Virus record (IMG/VR): IMGVR_UViG_3300029823_000384
Span: 1-32,306 of that record
From: a virus
Lineage: Duplodnaviria > Caudoviricetes
Strand: one strand, 5' to 3'
Length of the DNA: 32,306 nucleotides
The translations under genes were made by a program, and so were the position numbers. Below the pieces are notes generated by a model. The model was given only the letters and a program-made list of their open reading frames with translations, made no database searches and was not told the DNA's origin. The first letter of the stretch is position 1, and the number at the start of each line of letters is the position of its first letter. Below, piece after piece: positions 4,530-31,834 of the stretch.

Positions 4530-5054
4530 TTAATTCACCTGCCTTATTTCTAAAGTTTTTCCGGCCTGCATAAATGCTCCAAAGAATGATTGGCTTTCTG
4601 CCCCTTGTTCATATTTTAGCTGAAAAACCATGTTCGCCGGTTTTGCCTTATCAACCAAATTTATAATGTTTTTATGAGGAATTGCTTCCGATGGAAGCGC
4701 CGAAAGATAAATTGTAAATTTATATTGCTTTGGTAAAACTTCCATCCTTGCTGAAACCCCCGACTGTTTTTCAACCAAGTTTAATAAGGCAGAACCATTT
4801 ATAACGCTGTTGGCCTGAATTTTTGCCGCTATAAGTTTGCGGCGTTCAAAAAGCGTTCCGGAGCCGGCAAAGTTAAAAAGCTTTTCCCACCGTTCAATTG
4901 TTGGAAGATCCGCCGAAAGTACAAATTGATTCTGATAAGTTTGCTCTGCCTTTTGAAGCAAATTATCTGTCTGCGGATCGATTGCGCCGCCCAGAGCCTG
5001 AAAATCCTTTACATTATGAAGATACTCCGGAAGGTAATCAAGATACTGATACAT
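4530..5054 (-). CDS. Baseplate protein, XkdU/YmfQ (DUF2313)-like
   Basis: YLPEYL...QFVLSA...IERWEK...KPANM; follows baseplate J. Confidence 0.8.
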   Translation of the reverse strand: MYQYLDYLPEYLHNVKDFQALGGAIDPQTDNLLQKAEQTYQNQFVLSADLPTIERWEKLFNFAGSGTLFERRKLIAAKIQANSVINGSALLNLVEKQSGVSARMEVLPKQYKFTIYLSALPSEAIPHKNIINLVDKAKPANMVFQLKYEQGAESQSFFGAFMQAGKTLEIRQVN

Positions 5055-21739: not shown

Positions 21740-22228
21740 TTAAAACTCTTTTAAAATCTCAAGCGATAAATAAGTGATTTTAGGCTTCCCTAAAATCTTG
21801 ACCTCCGCTTTAGCACGCCGGCGATGCCGGTCAAGTTTCAGCAGTTTTACATTTTCTCCTGTCAGCGGACCGTCCAGCACTTTATATGTTCCGTTTTTAT
21901 TAAAATGGATCTTTGATGGCAAAAGCGGCTGCTCCCAACTTTCAATCCATTTTTCCTCTGTCGGTAAAAGCGGGGAAGGCCGGCTTCCGGTCCCTAATAT
22001 CCGGATAACTCCCTGTGTCCTTTTTAGGACGTAATACAATGTATCCGTGTATTCAATCCGCACAAATACGTAGCTTGGAATCACGACATAATCACGTTCC
22101 AGCCATTTACCGCCTGACCTGAGTACCCGCCGCTCATGCGCGACAGCGGCATGGATTCCGTTACGGGTAAGTGAATCCCGTACCATATCCTCTGATCCCG
22201 TCATGACCTGAAGAACATACCATTCCAT
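21740..22228 (-). CDS. NusG-paralog transcription antiterminator (LoaP-like)
   Basis: NGN domain WYVLQVMTGSE...PSYVFV...GVIRILG; KOW domain VLDGPLTG...KLDRHRRRAK. Confidence 0.88.
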   Translation of the reverse strand: MEWYVLQVMTGSEDMVRDSLTRNGIHAAVAHERRVLRSGGKWLERDYVVIPSYVFVRIEYTDTLYYVLKRTQGVIRILGTGSRPSPLLPTEEKWIESWEQPLLPSKIHFNKNGTYKVLDGPLTGENVKLLKLDRHRRRAKAEVKILGKPKITYLSLEILKEF

Positions 22229-25894: not shown

Positions 25895-26800
25895 TTAATA
25901 TGTTATAATTTTCATCGTTTTAGCCATTGCCATTAATCCTTTATAGCTGGTATCTTCGTTATCTTTGGCATTGCTGTATAAATTGACCGCGCCACGGATT
26001 CCCTGTTCGCTGCGTGCAATAGTGTGCAGCAGTTCAATTTCTTTTTCCTGCCCATTATCGGCTAAAGCCGGAAAAAGCAATTTAATGTCTTTTTTAGTAA
26101 CTTGTAGCGTTTTGCGAATATTAATCAGTTTGGTGCGGTTCCGTATTTGTGCAAACGCCGGACGGCTGCGGCCGTTTGTAACGGTTTCCGGATTGCCGAT
26201 TAAAGTAACGCCCAATTCAGGGTTGCTGTCGGTGAATGCTCGAATTGCCTCAATGGTTTTGATTGGAAGGTGCTGGGCTTCGTCAATAATCAGTACTTTG
26301 CGGCCACCGCGCAAGGCCTCGTCTATTTCCATCCACATATCGTCTTTTCTTCCGGTCGGCAATTTTAACTGCCGGCAAAGGAGTTTTAAAAACGCGTTTA
26401 AGCTTGAAACGCACGGATTTACAGTCACATAAATTGCGCTGTTCGGGTATTCGGCAGCGTATTTCAGTGCCGCTTTTGTTTTGCCGATTCCGGCATCGCC
26501 GCATTCATCGGCAAGCCCGCCTTTTAAATGGCACATTCTAATAGTTGCGTACACGCCTTCCGAAATAGACGTTGGAACATAATTCGGAGAAACATATAAT
26601 GCCTTTGCCTCGGCCTTCAGGTCGAAAAACTCACACAGCCGGTTTTCAAATTTTTCCACATCGCCGTTATAAGTGCCTTTGCGGTATGTACTGAGAGTAC
26701 CTGTACTGTAACCGATGTTGGCGGCGGCTTTTGATTGGCTTCCAACCTCCGTAATGTAAGCTTCCAGTTTTTGCTGGAGTTCAGGATTGTACTGTTTCAT
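25895..26800 (-). CDS. MuB-like transposition AAA+ ATPase
   Basis: N-terminal HTH, Walker A GDAGIGKT, Walker B VLIIDEAQHL; overlaps transposase stop. Confidence 0.93.
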   Translation of the reverse strand: MKQYNPELQQKLEAYITEVGSQSKAAANIGYSTGTLSTYRKGTYNGDVEKFENRLCEFFDLKAEAKALYVSPNYVPTSISEGVYATIRMCHLKGGLADECGDAGIGKTKAALKYAAEYPNSAIYVTVNPCVSSLNAFLKLLCRQLKLPTGRKDDMWMEIDEALRGGRKVLIIDEAQHLPIKTIEAIRAFTDSNPELGVTLIGNPETVTNGRSRPAFAQIRNRTKLINIRKTLQVTKKDIKLLFPALADNGQEKEIELLHTIARSEQGIRGAVNLYSNAKDNEDTSYKGLMAMAKTMKIITY

Positions 26801-28785
26801 ACATCTGCCCCTTTCTTTTCGTTGTTTCTAATCATTCGTGATATATCTACAATAGGGATTTCTTCCCCGCCGGAAGCAACTTTGTTTTCCCGCTGTTCAT
26901 TCGGAGTAACCATTTCGACGATATGATTATCATCCGAAGGAAGAAGCAAGCCTGTTGTGCTGTGTTTTGCAGCACGGACATATACGTCAAGCAAATTGAT
27001 ATGGCCGTATTGTGATACTACCAATTCGCGTTTTTCGTCTGCTAAATCTTTTAGTCCGCGTTTCAGGCGGCGCTTTTCGTGCATCGCGTCCCTGACACCT
27101 TCTTTGTCGGCTCCGTAGGAAAGCATCATATCCGTTCGCAGCGGAGCGGTCATTATGAACTTTTCATTTTCATCGTAAATGCGGACTTCATTAAGATTTT
27201 CCGGGTCGTAACGTAGAAATACTTTTTTACCGGTGAAATTGATAATTAGTTCGTCATTGAAATAATATAAACGTTCTCCGCAAATAGTAAGGTGTACTCC
27301 GTTTTTCCCCACGGTTTGCAGGCGTGTGCTGCGCATCATCATAAGGTTCAGGTCTTCCGGCGCGGCACGGCGTATAACACGCGGCAAATGTTCTCTATAT
27401 ACTTGGTCTTTCGTTTTTCCCTTGTCTGCCGCAACCTTGCCGTTGTACGGCTGTTGATTAAAATAACCGTCAATCATATTGTTTACGACCTGAATAAGCT
27501 CGCCGTCTGTTGGAATCTGTCCGGTTTTCAGTTTATGTTTTAGCTTTTCAGGTTTGGCGACTACATTGGAGCCGCAGTATGTATCAAACAAACGGCTTAA
27601 AAACGTGAAATTTCGGAATTCCCGTTCAATTATTTTTGCCTGCGCGTTTCTCGGAATGGCATTAACCATCTGAATTCCGAGGCGTGTTAATATCGGCGTT
27701 GGCAATTTAATATCGACTTTCTTTTTTCGGGTACGATGCCCCGTCCCGCCAATGTCAATGTTCAAATATTCCCGGCCATTGTCAACGTAAATGTATTTTG
27801 GAAGTCCGTACCTCATACACGCTTTCCGCAGCGCCGCCAATGTGCTGTCGGAACTTGGGTTTTCCGTTACTACCCATCCGACATAAATTCCGCTCCGTGC
27901 GTCCAAAAACGCCGATAACGTCATTCTGTGCCGCTGTTCCGTCCCATCGTCGGATTTCGTGATAACGTCTATCGTATGACCGTCCGCTATCCAGTAGTCA
28001 TTGGAAGCCATATCATCGTAAAAGCGGTCGACAAAAATCCCATAGCGGTCGTTATACGCTTTTTCACCTTTGCGTGCCAGCGTCGCAACCGGTTTTGAAA
28101 ACGCTTTTGCCATTCGGTAAAAGGTATCATATGACGGCATTTGCGGGAGCAGTTCTGGGCGTTCTTCCTGTACGATAAACCGCGTCGCTTCCTCACATTT
28201 GCTGACTGGCAGCGCCCGTTCGTCCAAATATACATAAAAGAAAATATCTTTAATAGTTTTTGGAACTCTCGAAGTGCCTTTTTTCCAGTGGCCGCGTTTA
28301 TCCACAAGACCGTCAAGGTTATTTTGCTTAAATGCCGCTTGTTTGCGGTATAATATATCTTTTGATATTTTAACGTCAGGGTAATTATCTCGGCATTTAC
28401 GCACAAATTCCATGTCAGCGGCAGCTTTTGAACCATGAAAGCTGTTTCGGAAATTCTGCCAGTCTGAAAGAATATTTTCCCACAGTTCAATTTCCTGACG
28501 CTGTTCCGCTGTAAAGTTTTCCAGTGCCTTAGACTTTGCCGGGGCAGTCTTTTTTTTGGCTTTCTGTAGTGAATCGGGAACTTCCCCGTACTTTTGTTTG
28601 TAGTATTTTACTTGGAGCCTTGGTTCAAGGGCATCTAAAGGAATAAGATACATTTTGCGATTTCGATTATTGGTCGTCGTCTGGCTTATCAATGAACCAT
28701 TTAACGCCAATGACTTTACATATCGGTCACTGCATCCCTTGAGTTGGGCGACTTCCTTGACCGTAAGAAGTTCCAATATATTCAC
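26797..28785 (-). CDS. MuA-like DDE transposase
   Basis: N-terminal HTH (LTVKEVAQLKG), WIADGH (D), YVDNGREY (D), AKIIEREF (E), C-terminal VFLRYDPENL. Start may be TTG 28776. Confidence 0.94.
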   Translation of the reverse strand: MNILELLTVKEVAQLKGCSDRYVKSLALNGSLISQTTTNNRNRKMYLIPLDALEPRLQVKYYKQKYGEVPDSLQKAKKKTAPAKSKALENFTAEQRQEIELWENILSDWQNFRNSFHGSKAAADMEFVRKCRDNYPDVKISKDILYRKQAAFKQNNLDGLVDKRGHWKKGTSRVPKTIKDIFFYVYLDERALPVSKCEEATRFIVQEERPELLPQMPSYDTFYRMAKAFSKPVATLARKGEKAYNDRYGIFVDRFYDDMASNDYWIADGHTIDVITKSDDGTEQRHRMTLSAFLDARSGIYVGWVVTENPSSDSTLAALRKACMRYGLPKYIYVDNGREYLNIDIGGTGHRTRKKKVDIKLPTPILTRLGIQMVNAIPRNAQAKIIEREFRNFTFLSRLFDTYCGSNVVAKPEKLKHKLKTGQIPTDGELIQVVNNMIDGYFNQQPYNGKVAADKGKTKDQVYREHLPRVIRRAAPEDLNLMMMRSTRLQTVGKNGVHLTICGERLYYFNDELIINFTGKKVFLRYDPENLNEVRIYDENEKFIMTAPLRTDMMLSYGADKEGVRDAMHEKRRLKRGLKDLADEKRELVVSQYGHINLLDVYVRAAKHSTTGLLLPSDDNHIVEMVTPNEQRENKVASGGEEIPIVDISRMIRNNEKKGADV

Positions 28786-28810
28786 CTGCCTTTCGGCTGA
28801 TTATCAAGTT

Positions 28811-28877
28811 TAGCCATGCCATCATCGGCTGCGGGAGGCTATCCCCGCAGGACGGAGCTTCCGCTCCGTTTCGGCTG
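28811..28877 (-). ncRNA. Hammerhead ribozyme type II, copy 1
   Basis: - strand GCC-GAAAC-GGAGC(GGAA)GCUCC-GUC/CUGCGGG(GAUAGCCU)CCCGCAG-CCGAUGA-U-GGC-AUGGCUA; loop UAGCC can pair with tail GGCUA. Predicted cut 28851/28850. Confidence 0.85.
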
Positions 28878-28895
28878 TTCATTAATGGCTGAATA

Positions 28896-28904
28896 TGCTA
28901 TAAT
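28896..28904 (+). promoter_or_regulatory. Extended -10 promoter for 28926..29528
   Basis: TGCTATAAT followed by AGGAGGT RBS (28914-28920). Confidence 0.7.
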
Positions 28905-28925
28905 TCTTTAAATAGGAGGTGTATT

Positions 28926-29528
28926 ATGCATAAGTTTGAAAACTATATTCCCGAATACGACATTCCGCTAAAGTCTGTTTTACCTTGTTTGGAATATGAT
29001 GTTGCGGTATTCTGTGATTGCTTAAAATGGATCATCCCAATGCCCCTTCCAAAGTACCTACGAAAATTCAGTGAATGTTTGATTTATTATTCGAACCGAG
29101 TGGACGAGTTGAAACCTGATACATTTCCTGAAGCATATCGTGTGTACATTATGGATTACCGCTTGAATATTCTATTTGCGGCACTTGATACAACTGGAAA
29201 AATTGCAACCTATTTTTCTAAATATGGGAAGTACGCCCATGATATTGAAGATTATTGTTATGGCGATGGCGAGTTGATAGGGGATGCTATTTTCCCTCAA
29301 ATGAGTTACGATTCTAAGTCCCTTCTGAGTTTTGAAAAGCGTTATGGTTTTATGCCAGTAGATGAACTTTCCATGGCTTCTGCCCTTGTCTTTCAAAATG
29401 AAGAGCTTCTCGAAAGAAGGCAAATATCGCAGTTCCAAACAGCCTTACTGATGGAAAAATTCAGAAGCAAAAACTTGATTGACTGGAAATCGCTTGTGAA
29501 CCGTGCTAAAGAAGATTTCGGGTTCTAA
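28926..29528 (+). CDS. Hypothetical protein, paralog A (antisense to early operon)
   Basis: Own promoter and strong RBS; shares motifs with 29774..30310. Confidence 0.85.
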   Translation: MHKFENYIPEYDIPLKSVLPCLEYDVAVFCDCLKWIIPMPLPKYLRKFSECLIYYSNRVDELKPDTFPEAYRVYIMDYRLNILFAALDTTGKIATYFSKYGKYAHDIEDYCYGDGELIGDAIFPQMSYDSKSLLSFEKRYGFMPVDELSMASALVFQNEELLERRQISQFQTALLMEKFRSKNLIDWKSLVNRAKEDFGF

Positions 29529-29655
29529 GTAAACGCTCTGCTCTCTTGGAAACAGGCTGATACGGATTTTCTGAAGGTTCAAAAACACTTTTTGCTGCTA
29601 ATTTTGTCCGTCCCTGAATTTGCACTTCGGGGGCGGCTTTTTTTGCGTTATCCAT
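29506..29655 (-). CDS. Small hypothetical protein, 49 aa (not in ORF track)
   Basis: AGAAAGGAG RBS directly after hammerhead 2; MDNAKKAAPEVQIQGRTKLAAKSVFEPSENPYQPVSKRAERLLRTRNLL. Confidence 0.55.
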   Translation of the reverse strand: MDNAKKAAPEVQIQGRTKLAAKSVFEPSENPYQPVSKRAERLLRTRNLL

Positions 29656-29670
29656 AAGGTTCTCCTTTCT

Positions 29671-29735
29671 GCCCTGCCATCATCGGCACAGGTGGGGCGG
29701 TTCCTGTGGACGGAGCTTCCGCTCCGTTTCGGCTG
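29671..29735 (-). ncRNA. Hammerhead ribozyme type II, copy 2
   Basis: - strand GCC-GAAAC-GGAGC(GGAA)GCUCC-GUC/CACAGG(AACCGCCCCA)CCUGUG-CCGAUGA-U-GGC-AGGGC; loop GCCC can pair with tail GGGC. Predicted cut 29709/29708. Confidence 0.85.
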
Positions 29736-29741
29736 GGTTTG

Positions 29742-29750
29742 TGCTATAAT
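29742..29750 (+). promoter_or_regulatory. Extended -10 promoter for 29774..30310
   Basis: TGCTATAAT, identical to 28896-28904, 23 nt before ATG. Confidence 0.68.
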
Positions 29751-29773
29751 TGGAAAAAAGGGGATGATTTTAT

Positions 29774-30310
29774 ATGCCAAGAGCTAAATTTGATTCAAAT
29801 CAGGAACATATTCTGCAAATGGCTCGTATTGCCAATTTGAAAAGCTATTCTACCGATTTGCTTTACGATGCCAAAATAATCTACAAAGAGCAATTACAAA
29901 AGTATAGGGAGTGGTTTTTTGAAGACGATTTGAAACACATAGAAGATAAAATTAAAGCATTGGAATCTATTAAAATAGTGCCTATTAATAAATCGCGCGT
30001 CTACATTGTTTCCTGCGATACCTTTATTTGCTTTGCTATGTATAATATGGACGAATGCGTTGTGGACAACCTTTGCAATGTCTTTAATTTAGCCGGGATT
30101 CCGCTGGATGAGACTGAGTTGGTAAAGCCGGTTTTTAGAAGTACCTTATTTGTTTTCAAGGGAAAAGAGCTGCTTTTATCCGAAGAAATCTCTACTACCC
30201 AGCTTGCTAAACTAATGGCTATTTTTCACAAAGAAAATTTAGTTAATTACTCCGGAATTCGTTACGATTTTTATGGGAAACCACGGCGGGATACAAATCA
30301 TCGTAAGTAA
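29774..30310 (+). CDS. Hypothetical protein, paralog B (antisense to early operon)
   Basis: Own promoter; shares motifs with 28926..29528. Confidence 0.82.
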   Translation: MPRAKFDSNQEHILQMARIANLKSYSTDLLYDAKIIYKEQLQKYREWFFEDDLKHIEDKIKALESIKIVPINKSRVYIVSCDTFICFAMYNMDECVVDNLCNVFNLAGIPLDETELVKPVFRSTLFVFKGKELLLSEEISTTQLAKLMAIFHKENLVNYSGIRYDFYGKPRRDTNHRK

Positions 30311-30809
30311 CTGGCATGTTATATCTTTCAGCGTTTTTGCAAATACAGCGTATTTTCTCAAGTGCTTCCATATGAGAGGCTCTCAGGTATTTTGAGTTGA
30401 CATCTGAAAACAAGTTCTCAAGCATTTTCATTTTTTTTAATCTGCTTATCGTTACATCCTCAAATATAATTCTTAGATAAATTTCTTCTAACACTTGTCC
30501 TTGCACGTGTTTCTCAGCATAAGACAATCTTTCCCGCTCCTGAACATCCGTTTCAGGGGCGGTTTCTTCATCCAGCCAGTCAAAGCACAGCCTTGCAAAC
30601 CATTTTTCCGCTGTTTCCGGATCTGAACTGTAATGCCCGCCCCAAGTATCGCCTGCTGGCGAAAGGTGCCATACAGCGAACGGTTCGGGAACTTTTTTAT
30701 TTGGATGCTGGGCTAAAACTACTTTGTTTTTATAATTTGCTAATACTTTATAACCGTTGGATAAAATGCTGCCAATTTGAGGATACTGCATAAAAAGGCT
30801 TCCTTTCAT
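30243..30809 (-). CDS. Hypothetical early protein
   Basis: Likely start ATG 30791 after AAAGGAAG; N-terminal PEPFAVW...WGGHY...A..WF.R segment. Confidence 0.75.
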   Translation of the reverse strand: MKGSLFMQYPQIGSILSNGYKVLANYKNKVVLAQHPNKKVPEPFAVWHLSPAGDTWGGHYSSDPETAEKWFARLCFDWLDEETAPETDVQERERLSYAEKHVQGQVLEEIYLRIIFEDVTISRLKKMKMLENLFSDVNSKYLRASHMEALEKIRCICKNAERYNMPVTYDDLYPAVVSHKNRNEFRSN

Positions 30810-31010: not shown

Positions 31011-31232
31011 TTATGCGCTGCAGGCATCAGAATACTTTTCACCGTATATTGCTTCTATTTCGGCGATTTCAGTATCTTTAAAATGCCGTTCGCCGTGTAA
31101 TTTTGCCGTTAGGTTTTGTTGGCACAAGCCGAGGCTCTCGGCTACTTCTTTCAGCGCAATGTCCTTTTGTACCGACTGTGTTTTAACCCACGTTCCAAAT
31201 GGCGTTAAAGGGCGCGGATTTCGTTTTCCCAC
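31011..31232 (-). CDS. Cro/Ner-like HTH regulator
   Basis: LTPFG.WVK...LKEVAESLGLCQQNLTAKLHGER; first gene of the early operon; AGGAGG RBS, GTG start. Confidence 0.85.
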   Translation of the reverse strand: MGKRNPRPLTPFGTWVKTQSVQKDIALKEVAESLGLCQQNLTAKLHGERHFKDTEIAEIEAIYGEKYSDACSA

Positions 31233-31337: not shown

Positions 31338-31366
31338 AGTATAATAGAATACTTTCTAAAAGTCAA
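31338..31366 (-). promoter_or_regulatory. Early lytic promoter with operator palindrome in spacer
   Basis: TTGACT-17 nt-TATACT; spacer holds TAGAA-N4-TTCTA (31345-31358); imperfect second copy at 31375-31388. Confidence 0.78.
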
Positions 31367-31378
31367 TAGATATTTTGA

Positions 31379-31834
31379 ATGTATTCTAAAAAAGGGGGCA
31401 ACTTTTTGAATATATACGAAAATATAAAAAAATTATGTAAAATAAAAGGAATGACTATTTCAAGCTTAGAAAGTGCCGCTAATCTTAGTAATGGCGCAAT
31501 CTCCAAATGGAAAAACAAAATGCCTCAAGCAGATAATTTATATAACGTTGCTAAGATTTTAGGGACAAGCATAGAATTTATTCTAACTGGAAATTTAGAA
31601 GATAGTCAGGAAAATAGAGAAAGCGCTAAATATAGTAATGATGATTTATCACTTATCGAAAAATATCGTAAATTAGACGACTGTGAAAAGCAAATTATAC
31701 TTGGCAAAATTTCAGAAATGATTTATAATAAAAAAATGGAAGAAAGTTCCGAAAAACTCTCTTCCAAAGTATTATGGAATTTACTTGCTGATTCAGATTA
31801 TAAGGACCAGTTAGTTCCAAAACATAAAGAATAA
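31379..31834 (+). CDS. XRE-family prophage repressor
   Basis: IKKLCKIKGMTISSLESAANLSNGAISKWK...VAKILGTSIEFILTG; likely start TTG 31406 after GGGGG. Confidence 0.9.
   Translation: MYSKKGGNFLNIYENIKKLCKIKGMTISSLESAANLSNGAISKWKNKMPQADNLYNVAKILGTSIEFILTGNLEDSQENRESAKYSNDDLSLIEKYRKLDDCEKQIILGKISEMIYNKKMEESSEKLSSKVLWNLLADSDYKDQLVPKHKE

Follow-up and report, generated by a model that had tools for sequence, protein, structure and literature searches.

Type II hammerheads beside exchangeable inverted genes in the early operon of a Mu-like prophage: candidate processing sites and recombination linkers

Morons carry their own promoter, SD sequence and terminator, are lower in G+C, and are present or absent between conserved neighbours. 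In T4-type phages the PeSL, which are small repeated promoter/stem-loop elements, delimit non-essential genes and shuffle them by recombination (Arbiol et al. 2010, PMC2839356). Type II hammerheads of prophages cluster, with several copies flanking single genes of varying identity (Perreault et al. 2011, PMC3088659); the legend of Fig. 3 in that paper mentions some genes in opposite orientation, and the processing of polycistronic phage RNA was proposed as the role. Of the genes associated with bacterial hammerheads and twisters, those of Mu-like phages show the strongest link (PMC10085705, from earlier work), and the purpose of the self-cleaving ribozymes near them is stated as unknown (PMC10085705, PMC6765202). 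Phage Fc02 contains olg1/sie1, a lysogen-expressed gene on the repressor strand that overlaps the early operon after ner and has superinfection-exclusion activity (PMC9936078). Hammerhead clusters by variable prophage genes, the Mu-like link, promoter-terminator shuffling elements and an antisense exclusion gene are all already in print. The present locus adds a slot for inverted cargo at MuA-proximal hammerheads with an abutting promoter-like site; no description of a promoter-hammerhead junction with swappable inverted cargo was found in the literature searched, which was mainly open-access papers and, for the 2011 study of Perreault and colleagues, sections of its text. The explanation that fits best, to which we give about an even chance, is that the hammerheads are early-transcript processing sites doubling as recombination linkers for moron-like cassettes.

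The window, that is, the whole 32,306-nt stretch analysed, is a Mu-like transposable prophage in which a repressor, a ner-like gene, MuA, MuB, GemA and Mor were all found by Pfam and PHROG searches, with the repressor on the plus strand and the others on the minus strand. The repressor-like HTH gene (31379..31834, +; Pfam HTH_3, E 4.9e-6; phrog_8, E 1.1e-13) is on the same strand as the two inverted genes, ORF1 (200 aa, 28926..29528, +) and ORF2 (178 aa, 29774..30310, +). The first early gene is a Ner/Cro-like HTH gene (31011..31232, −), so labelled from its position and a weak match (phrog_1468, E 0.00095), and a candidate early promoter, TTGACT-17-TATACT (31338..31366, −; 10/12 matches, a consensus match only), would drive transcription across both hammerheads. 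The ner-like gene and MuA (a MuA-type transposase of 662 aa, 26797..28785, −; Pfam Mu-transpos_C, E 4.6e-15; phrog_310, E 2.5e-106) flank both hammerhead/inverted-gene units, and MuA is the first core gene 3' of the hammerhead HH1. Two early-strand ORFs run against the inverted genes. The 49-aa ORF (29506..29655, −; from translation) starts directly after the hammerhead HH2, is preceded by AAAGGAG, crosses the terminator-like hairpin T1 and overlaps the 3' end of ORF1; a related ORF also follows an HH2-type hammerhead in locus L015. The 188-aa ORF (30243..30809, −; from the ORF list and comparison with relatives) has an N-terminal domain common to other Mu-like phages and a variable tail that crosses the hairpin T2 and overlaps the 3' end of ORF2. 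By layout, the locus resembles Fc02 olg1/sie1 in that a gene sharing the strand of the repressor lies against the early operon, and it differs in its ribozymes, none being mentioned for Fc02 (0 occurrences of the word; PMC9936078). The host is probably a member of the Clostridia, because the named relatives of ORF1 are from Blautia, Ruminococcus and Anaerovoracaceae records.

Elsewhere in the window, a diversity-generating-retroelement-like set occupies positions 1-2898 (−), with a reverse transcriptase (1-735; RVT_1, E 3.4e-17), a bAvd gene (1017-1385; E 6.1e-29), an Rfam RT-14 RNA (762-908; 82.5 bits) and a candidate target gene of 455 aa. A NusG-domain gene (21740-22228, −; Pfam E 2.6e-15), possibly an antiterminator, lies directly before the terminase/late genes.

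The sequence-only reading had seen one unit twice, about 858 bp apart, each time with a type II hammerhead on the minus strand, and this was borne out: HH1 (28808..28876, −) is supported by Rfam RF02276 (Hammerhead_II; 39.4 bits, gathering 37), by its structure and by covariation in relatives, and HH2 (about 29663..29735, −) by its core, its stems and 28-nt identity with HH1. HH2 was not reported at the Rfam Hammerhead_II gathering score, and the model R1, among whose building sequences HH2 itself is counted, gave it 71.6 bits. Both have the type II topology, with three stems round the core, stems I and III closed and stem II open, and HH2 shares the core of HH1, with stems III/I/II of 6/6/3 bp. 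A pseudoknot between loop I and the 3' tail contains 5 bp in HH1 and 4 bp in HH2. The topology, this pseudoknot and the variable flanked genes are shared with the clustered prophage hammerheads described before (PMC3088659). Since the predicted cut follows GUC (28851/28850 in HH1 and 29709/29708 in HH2), the predicted 3' products begin at 28850 and 29708, the same positions that the sequence-only reading had named. A 28-bp direct repeat, consisting of stem III and the 5' arm of stem II, is identical in its two copies (28850..28877 and 29708..29735), which are spaced 858 bp. No third or degenerate hammerhead was found in the window, the next-best R1 match having E 0.078. A GCC-GAAA-GGC hairpin at 28775-28807, between HH1 and the MuA start, echoes the hammerhead 5' arm (74% over 27 nt; R1 E 0.14) and may be what is left of a former copy.

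The cores of HH1 and HH2 are both CCGAUGA, with an extra U following A9; this U4C change is the sole departure from the consensus core (C3 U4 G5 A6 N7 G8 A9 / G12 A13 A14 A15 / U16 H17), so that both copies are core variants, and it was present in 6/42 aligned hammerheads. U4C is a natural hammerhead variant with considerably lower activity in vitro (PMC3088659), as would be expected if the ribozymes were too slow to matter in this phage and were kept only as DNA linkers and ribosome-binding-site context. We consider this very improbable. A viroid variant with U4C is still sufficiently active in vivo (PMC3088659), and stem I and the pseudoknot differ between HH1 and HH2 through compensatory changes. 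In the 42 hammerheads of the window and related loci, 95.2% of the cells pair, a value reached by 0/500 shuffles, with stems I-III lying within the selection filter; the pseudoknot, which lies outside that filter, was paired in 93.3% of its cells and showed double-sided changes in 4/5 pairs.

On the plus strand, each hammerhead is abutted by an extended -10 promoter-like site. P1 (TGCTATAAT, 28896..28904, +) is a motif match with no consensus -35, located 20 nt beyond HH1, and relatives have comparable sites at this position; P2 (TGCTATAAT, 29742..29750, +), also a motif match, is located 7 nt beyond HH2, and the two are 846 apart. A -35/-10 promoter scan of the window listed neither P1 nor P2. 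The motif TGNTATAAT was found 4 times in the window against 1.68 expected, a count reached by 8/100 shuffles; with this mild enrichment the motif is weak alone, and therefore its position carries the weight. The proposal of a promoter back-to-back with the hammerhead is thus upheld as to the presence of TGCTATAAT at both units, and is to be narrowed to a promoter-like site of the extended -10 type with a motif that is weak alone. Both inverted genes have an SD-like site (AGGAGG at 28914-28919 for ORF1), and both units end in a terminator-like hairpin, T1 (29608..29643, +; -17.4 kcal/mol, with a T tract) for ORF1 and T2 (30534..30562, +; from a hairpin scan) for ORF2, each within the minus-strand early ORF that overlaps the 3' end of the inverted gene. 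T1 and T2 did not match each other by direct blastn, and both matched one terminator stretch in L015. A hairpin was found 3' of 10/24 inverted genes tested, 9 of the 10 at a hammerhead-type slot. Immediately after the upstream hammerhead, opposite-strand terminators were seen in the window, L004, L006 and L015, and the repeat in L006 takes in the hammerhead, the SD and 15 initial codons, in which the terminator of the opposite strand is encoded. In hammerhead-free L013, a by-eye reading of 4855-4915 gave a TGATATACT site followed by a close terminator-like hairpin, between the ORF2 homologue and MuA and antisense to the MuA leader.

The two units therefore share with morons, by consensus matches only, a promoter-like site, an SD and a terminator-like hairpin, and in addition a G+C of 0.38 and 0.36 (ORF1 and ORF2) against 0.44-0.45 for MuA/MuB, and variable presence. 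They differ from morons in being inserted antisense within an early operon at ribozyme repeats and in encoding an unnamed protein family.

ORF1 and ORF2 are remote homologues, judged by sequence, from two old subfamilies of this family, with 29 close homologues of ORF1 and 9 of ORF2 (self included in each). BLASTP gave E 3e-6 over 54 aa, and hhalign of the two families gave a probability of 91.7 and E 7.7e-7 over 139 columns. A joint profile, built from 22 of the 38 ORF1/ORF2 homologue sequences, collected 92 representatives at E 0.001 or better. In a tree of 14 distinct members with known context, the ORF1 clade was separated from the ORF2 clade with 100/100, so that ORF1 and ORF2 are separately acquired relatives. 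A recent local duplication was ruled out by this split. The sequence-only reading of the two as divergent paralogs holds with regard to homology (hhalign 91.7), the paralogs belonging to two deeply split subfamilies. The dN/dS of the L004-L300 pair was 0.116/0.653, the other 27 pairs being saturated or nearly so at synonymous sites, and this purifying selection in relatives indicates that they are real genes. The AF2 models had pLDDT values of 82 (ORF1) and 93.9 (ORF2). Residues K23, D32, R75, Y77 and N155 (numbered as in ORF2) are nearly invariant. No match to ORF1 or ORF2 was found in Pfam, PHROG or NCBIfam, nor any PDB sequence match for the family, and 58 family members searched against Pfam, PADLOC and PHROGs had no family common to more than 1/58. 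Foldseek on the models gave nothing at E 0.001 or better, tblastn gave no match among GenBank phages, and the ESM Atlas gave unnamed clusters only, under 0.9, for ORF1 and no usable match for ORF2. The best Z values in a wide VIA structure search were 2.8 for ORF1 (rmsd 3.8, 75 aligned) and 3.4 for ORF2 (rmsd 4.4, 65 aligned); low scores of models in this search show neither a new fold nor a different fold. By analogy, ORF1 and ORF2 would most likely be moron proteins directed against superinfecting phage or host, and the family, which has 92 representatives, a confident model and nothing clearly similar in structure, can reasonably be put forward as a candidate for a function expressed in the lysogen.

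The hammerhead next to MuA was constant in the related loci sampled. The MuA-anchored sample comprised the best 80 of 290 loci, 70 of which had at least 300 nt upstream; these formed 21 clusters at 90% MuA identity, one cluster accounting for 33/70. In 70/70 loci a hammerhead lay no more than about 200 nt from the MuA start, 65 by pattern and 5 by model R1. Compared with the ribozymes reported near Mu-like genes (PMC10085705), the hammerhead here has a fixed place in the MuA leader and is linked to a slot in which inverted genes are exchangeable. Among 44 distinct hammerhead contexts in related Mu-like phages, 15 had a back-to-back extended -10, an SD and an inverted ORF, these 15 containing repeats of the same cargo family, and 29 did not; the near-identical phage L272 is part of the count. 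The same inverted unit was found at 50/1120 random positions, at 2/271 gene starts after MuA, and at 1/76 early gene starts without a hammerhead, the one being the repressor (15/44 vs 1/76, Fisher p 6e-7, with non-independent rows). Counted from the other side, 13 of 32 distinct inverted units were located 7-37 nt from a hammerhead, in promoter-hammerhead spacing classes of 7, 10-11, 23-26 and 37 nt, and by inspection the rest comprised 12 repressors, 2 units on the far side of the repressor and 5 that were taken for shadow ORFs of sense genes.

This tie of inverted units to hammerheads is the main result against explaining the hammerheads as linkers. Inverted units favour hammerheads over other early boundaries, which are also variable, and this hints at selection for the cut. 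The cut would then be kept for insulation, separating the MuA/MuB mRNA from the part complementary to the moron mRNA, and inverted genes would persist mainly where a hammerhead follows, as a natural counterpart of engineered ribozyme insulators. Such selection is a live rival, although on balance we think it unlikely. It accounts for the contrast between the 15/44 contexts and the controls and for the 13/32 units near hammerheads, the several spacing classes may mean repeated origins, and the predicted 3' product would begin with stem I and the pseudoknot. However, a single ancestral promoter-hammerhead element that spread with new cargo would give equal enrichment, the same family is found in three lineages, inverted and upstream of MuA, where no hammerhead is present, and the 188-aa early gene shares about 320 nt with the ORF2 mRNA, an overlap guarded by no cut. 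Furthermore, RNase J1 can degrade 5'-hydroxyl products, as it does that of glmS in B. subtilis (PMC11780869), and the cut may either stabilise or destabilise the MuA mRNA.

Back-to-back placement as a general trait of phage type II hammerheads was rejected, since it was found in about 3 of 179 distinct contexts among the matches listed, which came from pattern scans covering 5 and 6 of 64 parts. Only a same-strand gene was upstream in 149 of these contexts, and 3 were judged real (L026, L021 and L040), two of them in phages without a nearby Mu marker. In those two, L021 (3610-3786) and L040 (2075-2221), the hammerhead is back-to-back with a small inverted gene; they have a downstream gene in common, and the L040 cargo is phrog_5079, of unknown function. 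Seven hammerhead pattern matches were seen within 2.9 kb on a single strand of one viral contig (L183-L185). In L352, a phage that has a MuA-proximal hammerhead too, a Twister-P1-like match (544-603, −; 62.1 bits, below the gathering score of 67.2) lies downstream of MuB.

Protein-anchored scans gave 25 loci, of which L351 (the window's own sequence), L012 (a near-identical phage) and L362 (26 nt upstream) were left out; the other 22 were grouped on shared upstream sequence into 9 lineages. In 9/9 the ORF1/ORF2-family gene opposes the early operon, and MuA was within the locus in 8/9. The sequence-only reading had proposed a repeated module and had asked whether homologues generally lack an adjacent hammerhead; they do not, as 6/9 lineages (L004 group, L005, L006, L352, L360 and L361) have one back-to-back, and the unit does recur. 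It was absent in 3/9 (L002, L007 group and L013): model R1 with filters off found no hammerhead in L002, L003, L007 and L013, and other ribozyme classes gave nothing at E 0.5 in L002, L007 and L013. Three further lineages (L026, L300 group and L335 group) all had a hammerhead, and as they came from hammerhead- or MuA-anchored scans they are not an unbiased sample. Hammerheads within 1.2 kb stand on both sides of the ORF1-type gene in the window, the L004 group, L005, L006, L026 and the L301 group. Beyond ORF2-type genes no hammerhead was found in the window, L012, L352, L360 (805 nt available) or L361.

These distributions bear on the dedicated switch that had been suggested for ORF1 and ORF2, in which two cuts on induction would release an 858-nt RNA (29708-28851), fully complementary to the ORF1 mRNA, that silences ORF1. 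The geometry fits ORF1, as the fragment spans from the promoter-proximal region to the terminator, and the bracketed ORF1-type genes agree with it. Nevertheless, this is improbable, and less likely than insulation. No far-side hammerhead was seen for the ORF2-type genes just listed, there is nothing to silence in 29/44 hammerhead contexts, and a hammerhead precedes MuA in 70/70 loci. The family is inverted without a hammerhead in L002, the L007 group and L013, unrelated cargo occurs behind the same promoter, and the two genes come from deeply split subfamilies. Silencing would need no ribozyme, because early transcription would run antisense to the moron mRNA over its full length whether or not the cut occurs, and antisense overlap and transcriptional interference would be expected in either case. 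What stays plausible from that proposal is the uncoupling of downstream genes from duplex formation; the release of RNA as a dedicated antisense switch is not supported.

The slot gains, loses and exchanges its cargo. L012, which is 93-97% identical to the window on both flanks, is without the 858-bp unit; it matches HH1 of the window up to 28876 and resumes at 29736, so the junction is at the 28-bp hammerhead repeat, in a comparison that is unpolarised. Window positions 28881-29660 were searched in L014, on the same contig as L012, and nothing was present. A series within one lineage runs from 2 hammerheads without inverted cargo (L298) through 3 with one inverted cargo (L301/L311) to 4 with two (L004), and the alignment breaks at the hammerheads. 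Different genes were also found in the same place: L026 has an ORF1-type and L335 an ORF2-type gene between flanks that align for 1152 nt on one side and 381 nt on the other, L015 has an unrelated 130-aa gene behind P2, the P2 promoter stretch being near-identical in L015/L273, and two unrelated cargo families occur behind one promoter in L304/L334 and L309/L326/L332. The ORF1 unit is thus absent from a close relative with its flanks adjacent (L012), and ORF2 is replaced in L015. In the L303/L304/L309 lineage cargo is present or absent beside one hammerhead, which marks the downstream border and leaves the other border without one. The slot supplies several unannotated cargo families: Pfam at its curated cut-offs matched none of 13 other cargo proteins, and one matched phrog_5079. 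A second recurrent family of 62-83 aa with an E-P-L-A motif, also with no Pfam match at the cut-off, is inverted at hammerheads in five lineages (L276:2-187, L290:3386-3577, L304:5645-5893, L348:2402-2614 and L006:4389-4613). In L344 (185-298, −), a 38-codon ORF with a start like the ORF1-family N-termini lies behind the usual promoter and hammerhead, and is perhaps a truncated cassette.

Indel and swap junctions within a repeated element (window/L012 and L298/L301/L004), at one border only in L303/L304/L309, are also what is described for PeSL (PMC2839356). In this locus, however, the repeat is a ribozyme on one strand and a promoter on the other, the cargo runs against the operon, and the phage is temperate and transposable. 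The slot works like PeSL and is not PeSL, as its cargo is inverted and its repeat a ribozyme. Compared with the clustered prophage hammerheads (PMC3088659), the abutting promoter, the cargo swaps behind one promoter and the indel junctions are seen here and do not appear in the text sections of that paper, Fig. 3 and the supplements aside.

Because related phages hold different genes or none at these sites, the hammerheads likely double as landing sites for exchangeable accessory genes and less likely form a dedicated antisense switch. This linker function agrees with the 70/70 MuA-proximal hammerheads, the L012 indel, the L298/L301/L004 series and the swaps that share a promoter, and also with the opposite-strand terminators, the hammerhead-free family members, and the higher similarity of hammerheads within a phage (0.72, 18 pairs) than between phages (0.64, 843 pairs; pairs not independent). 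Against it stand the shortness of the 28-bp homology, the single hammerhead border in L303/L304/L309, and terminators in only 10/24.

For hammerheads that serve as both processing sites and linkers, we infer the following course. In the lysogen, the repressor would block the early promoter, and the cargo would use its own extended -10 for transcription. Upon induction, the early transcript would pass antisense through the cargo and be cut at each hammerhead, the cut likely falling just before the next ribosome-binding site, so that the MuA mRNA would be left with a structured 5'-OH end about 65 nt ahead of its start. The cut would also detach the MuA/MuB mRNA from the cargo-antisense stretch, which may help to retain cargo and is not needed for the layout. 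Between lysogens, the cassettes would move by recombination at the hammerhead repeats and the neighbouring conserved genes; these backward-facing accessory genes, likely expressed in the lysogen, are likely gained, lost and swapped with the repeat as the crossover point. Since the following early gene has its SD and start fused to the hammerhead, the promoter end of an entering cassette must abut this ribozyme; the first codons after the upstream hammerhead often encode the cargo terminator on the other strand.

The locus and its relatives offer natural pairs in which one hammerhead site is either occupied by cargo or empty, and with these, linker, insulator and antisense release can be separated by simple mutants. 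A more speculative and rather doubtful proposal is that the opposite-strand promoter, the hammerhead, and the SD and start codons doubling as an opposite-strand terminator form one two-faced junction element, both cassette attachment site and RNA insulator, in Mu-like phages of Clostridia. If this is true, a transposable phage would carry lysogen-expressed cargo antisense in its lytic operon, and induction would excise the antisense stretch, turning the cargo off and sparing the transposase mRNA. It would give bacterial hammerheads a concrete biological role, and the slot would be a hotspot for new phage-exclusion/defence proteins, including a family without a recognised fold.
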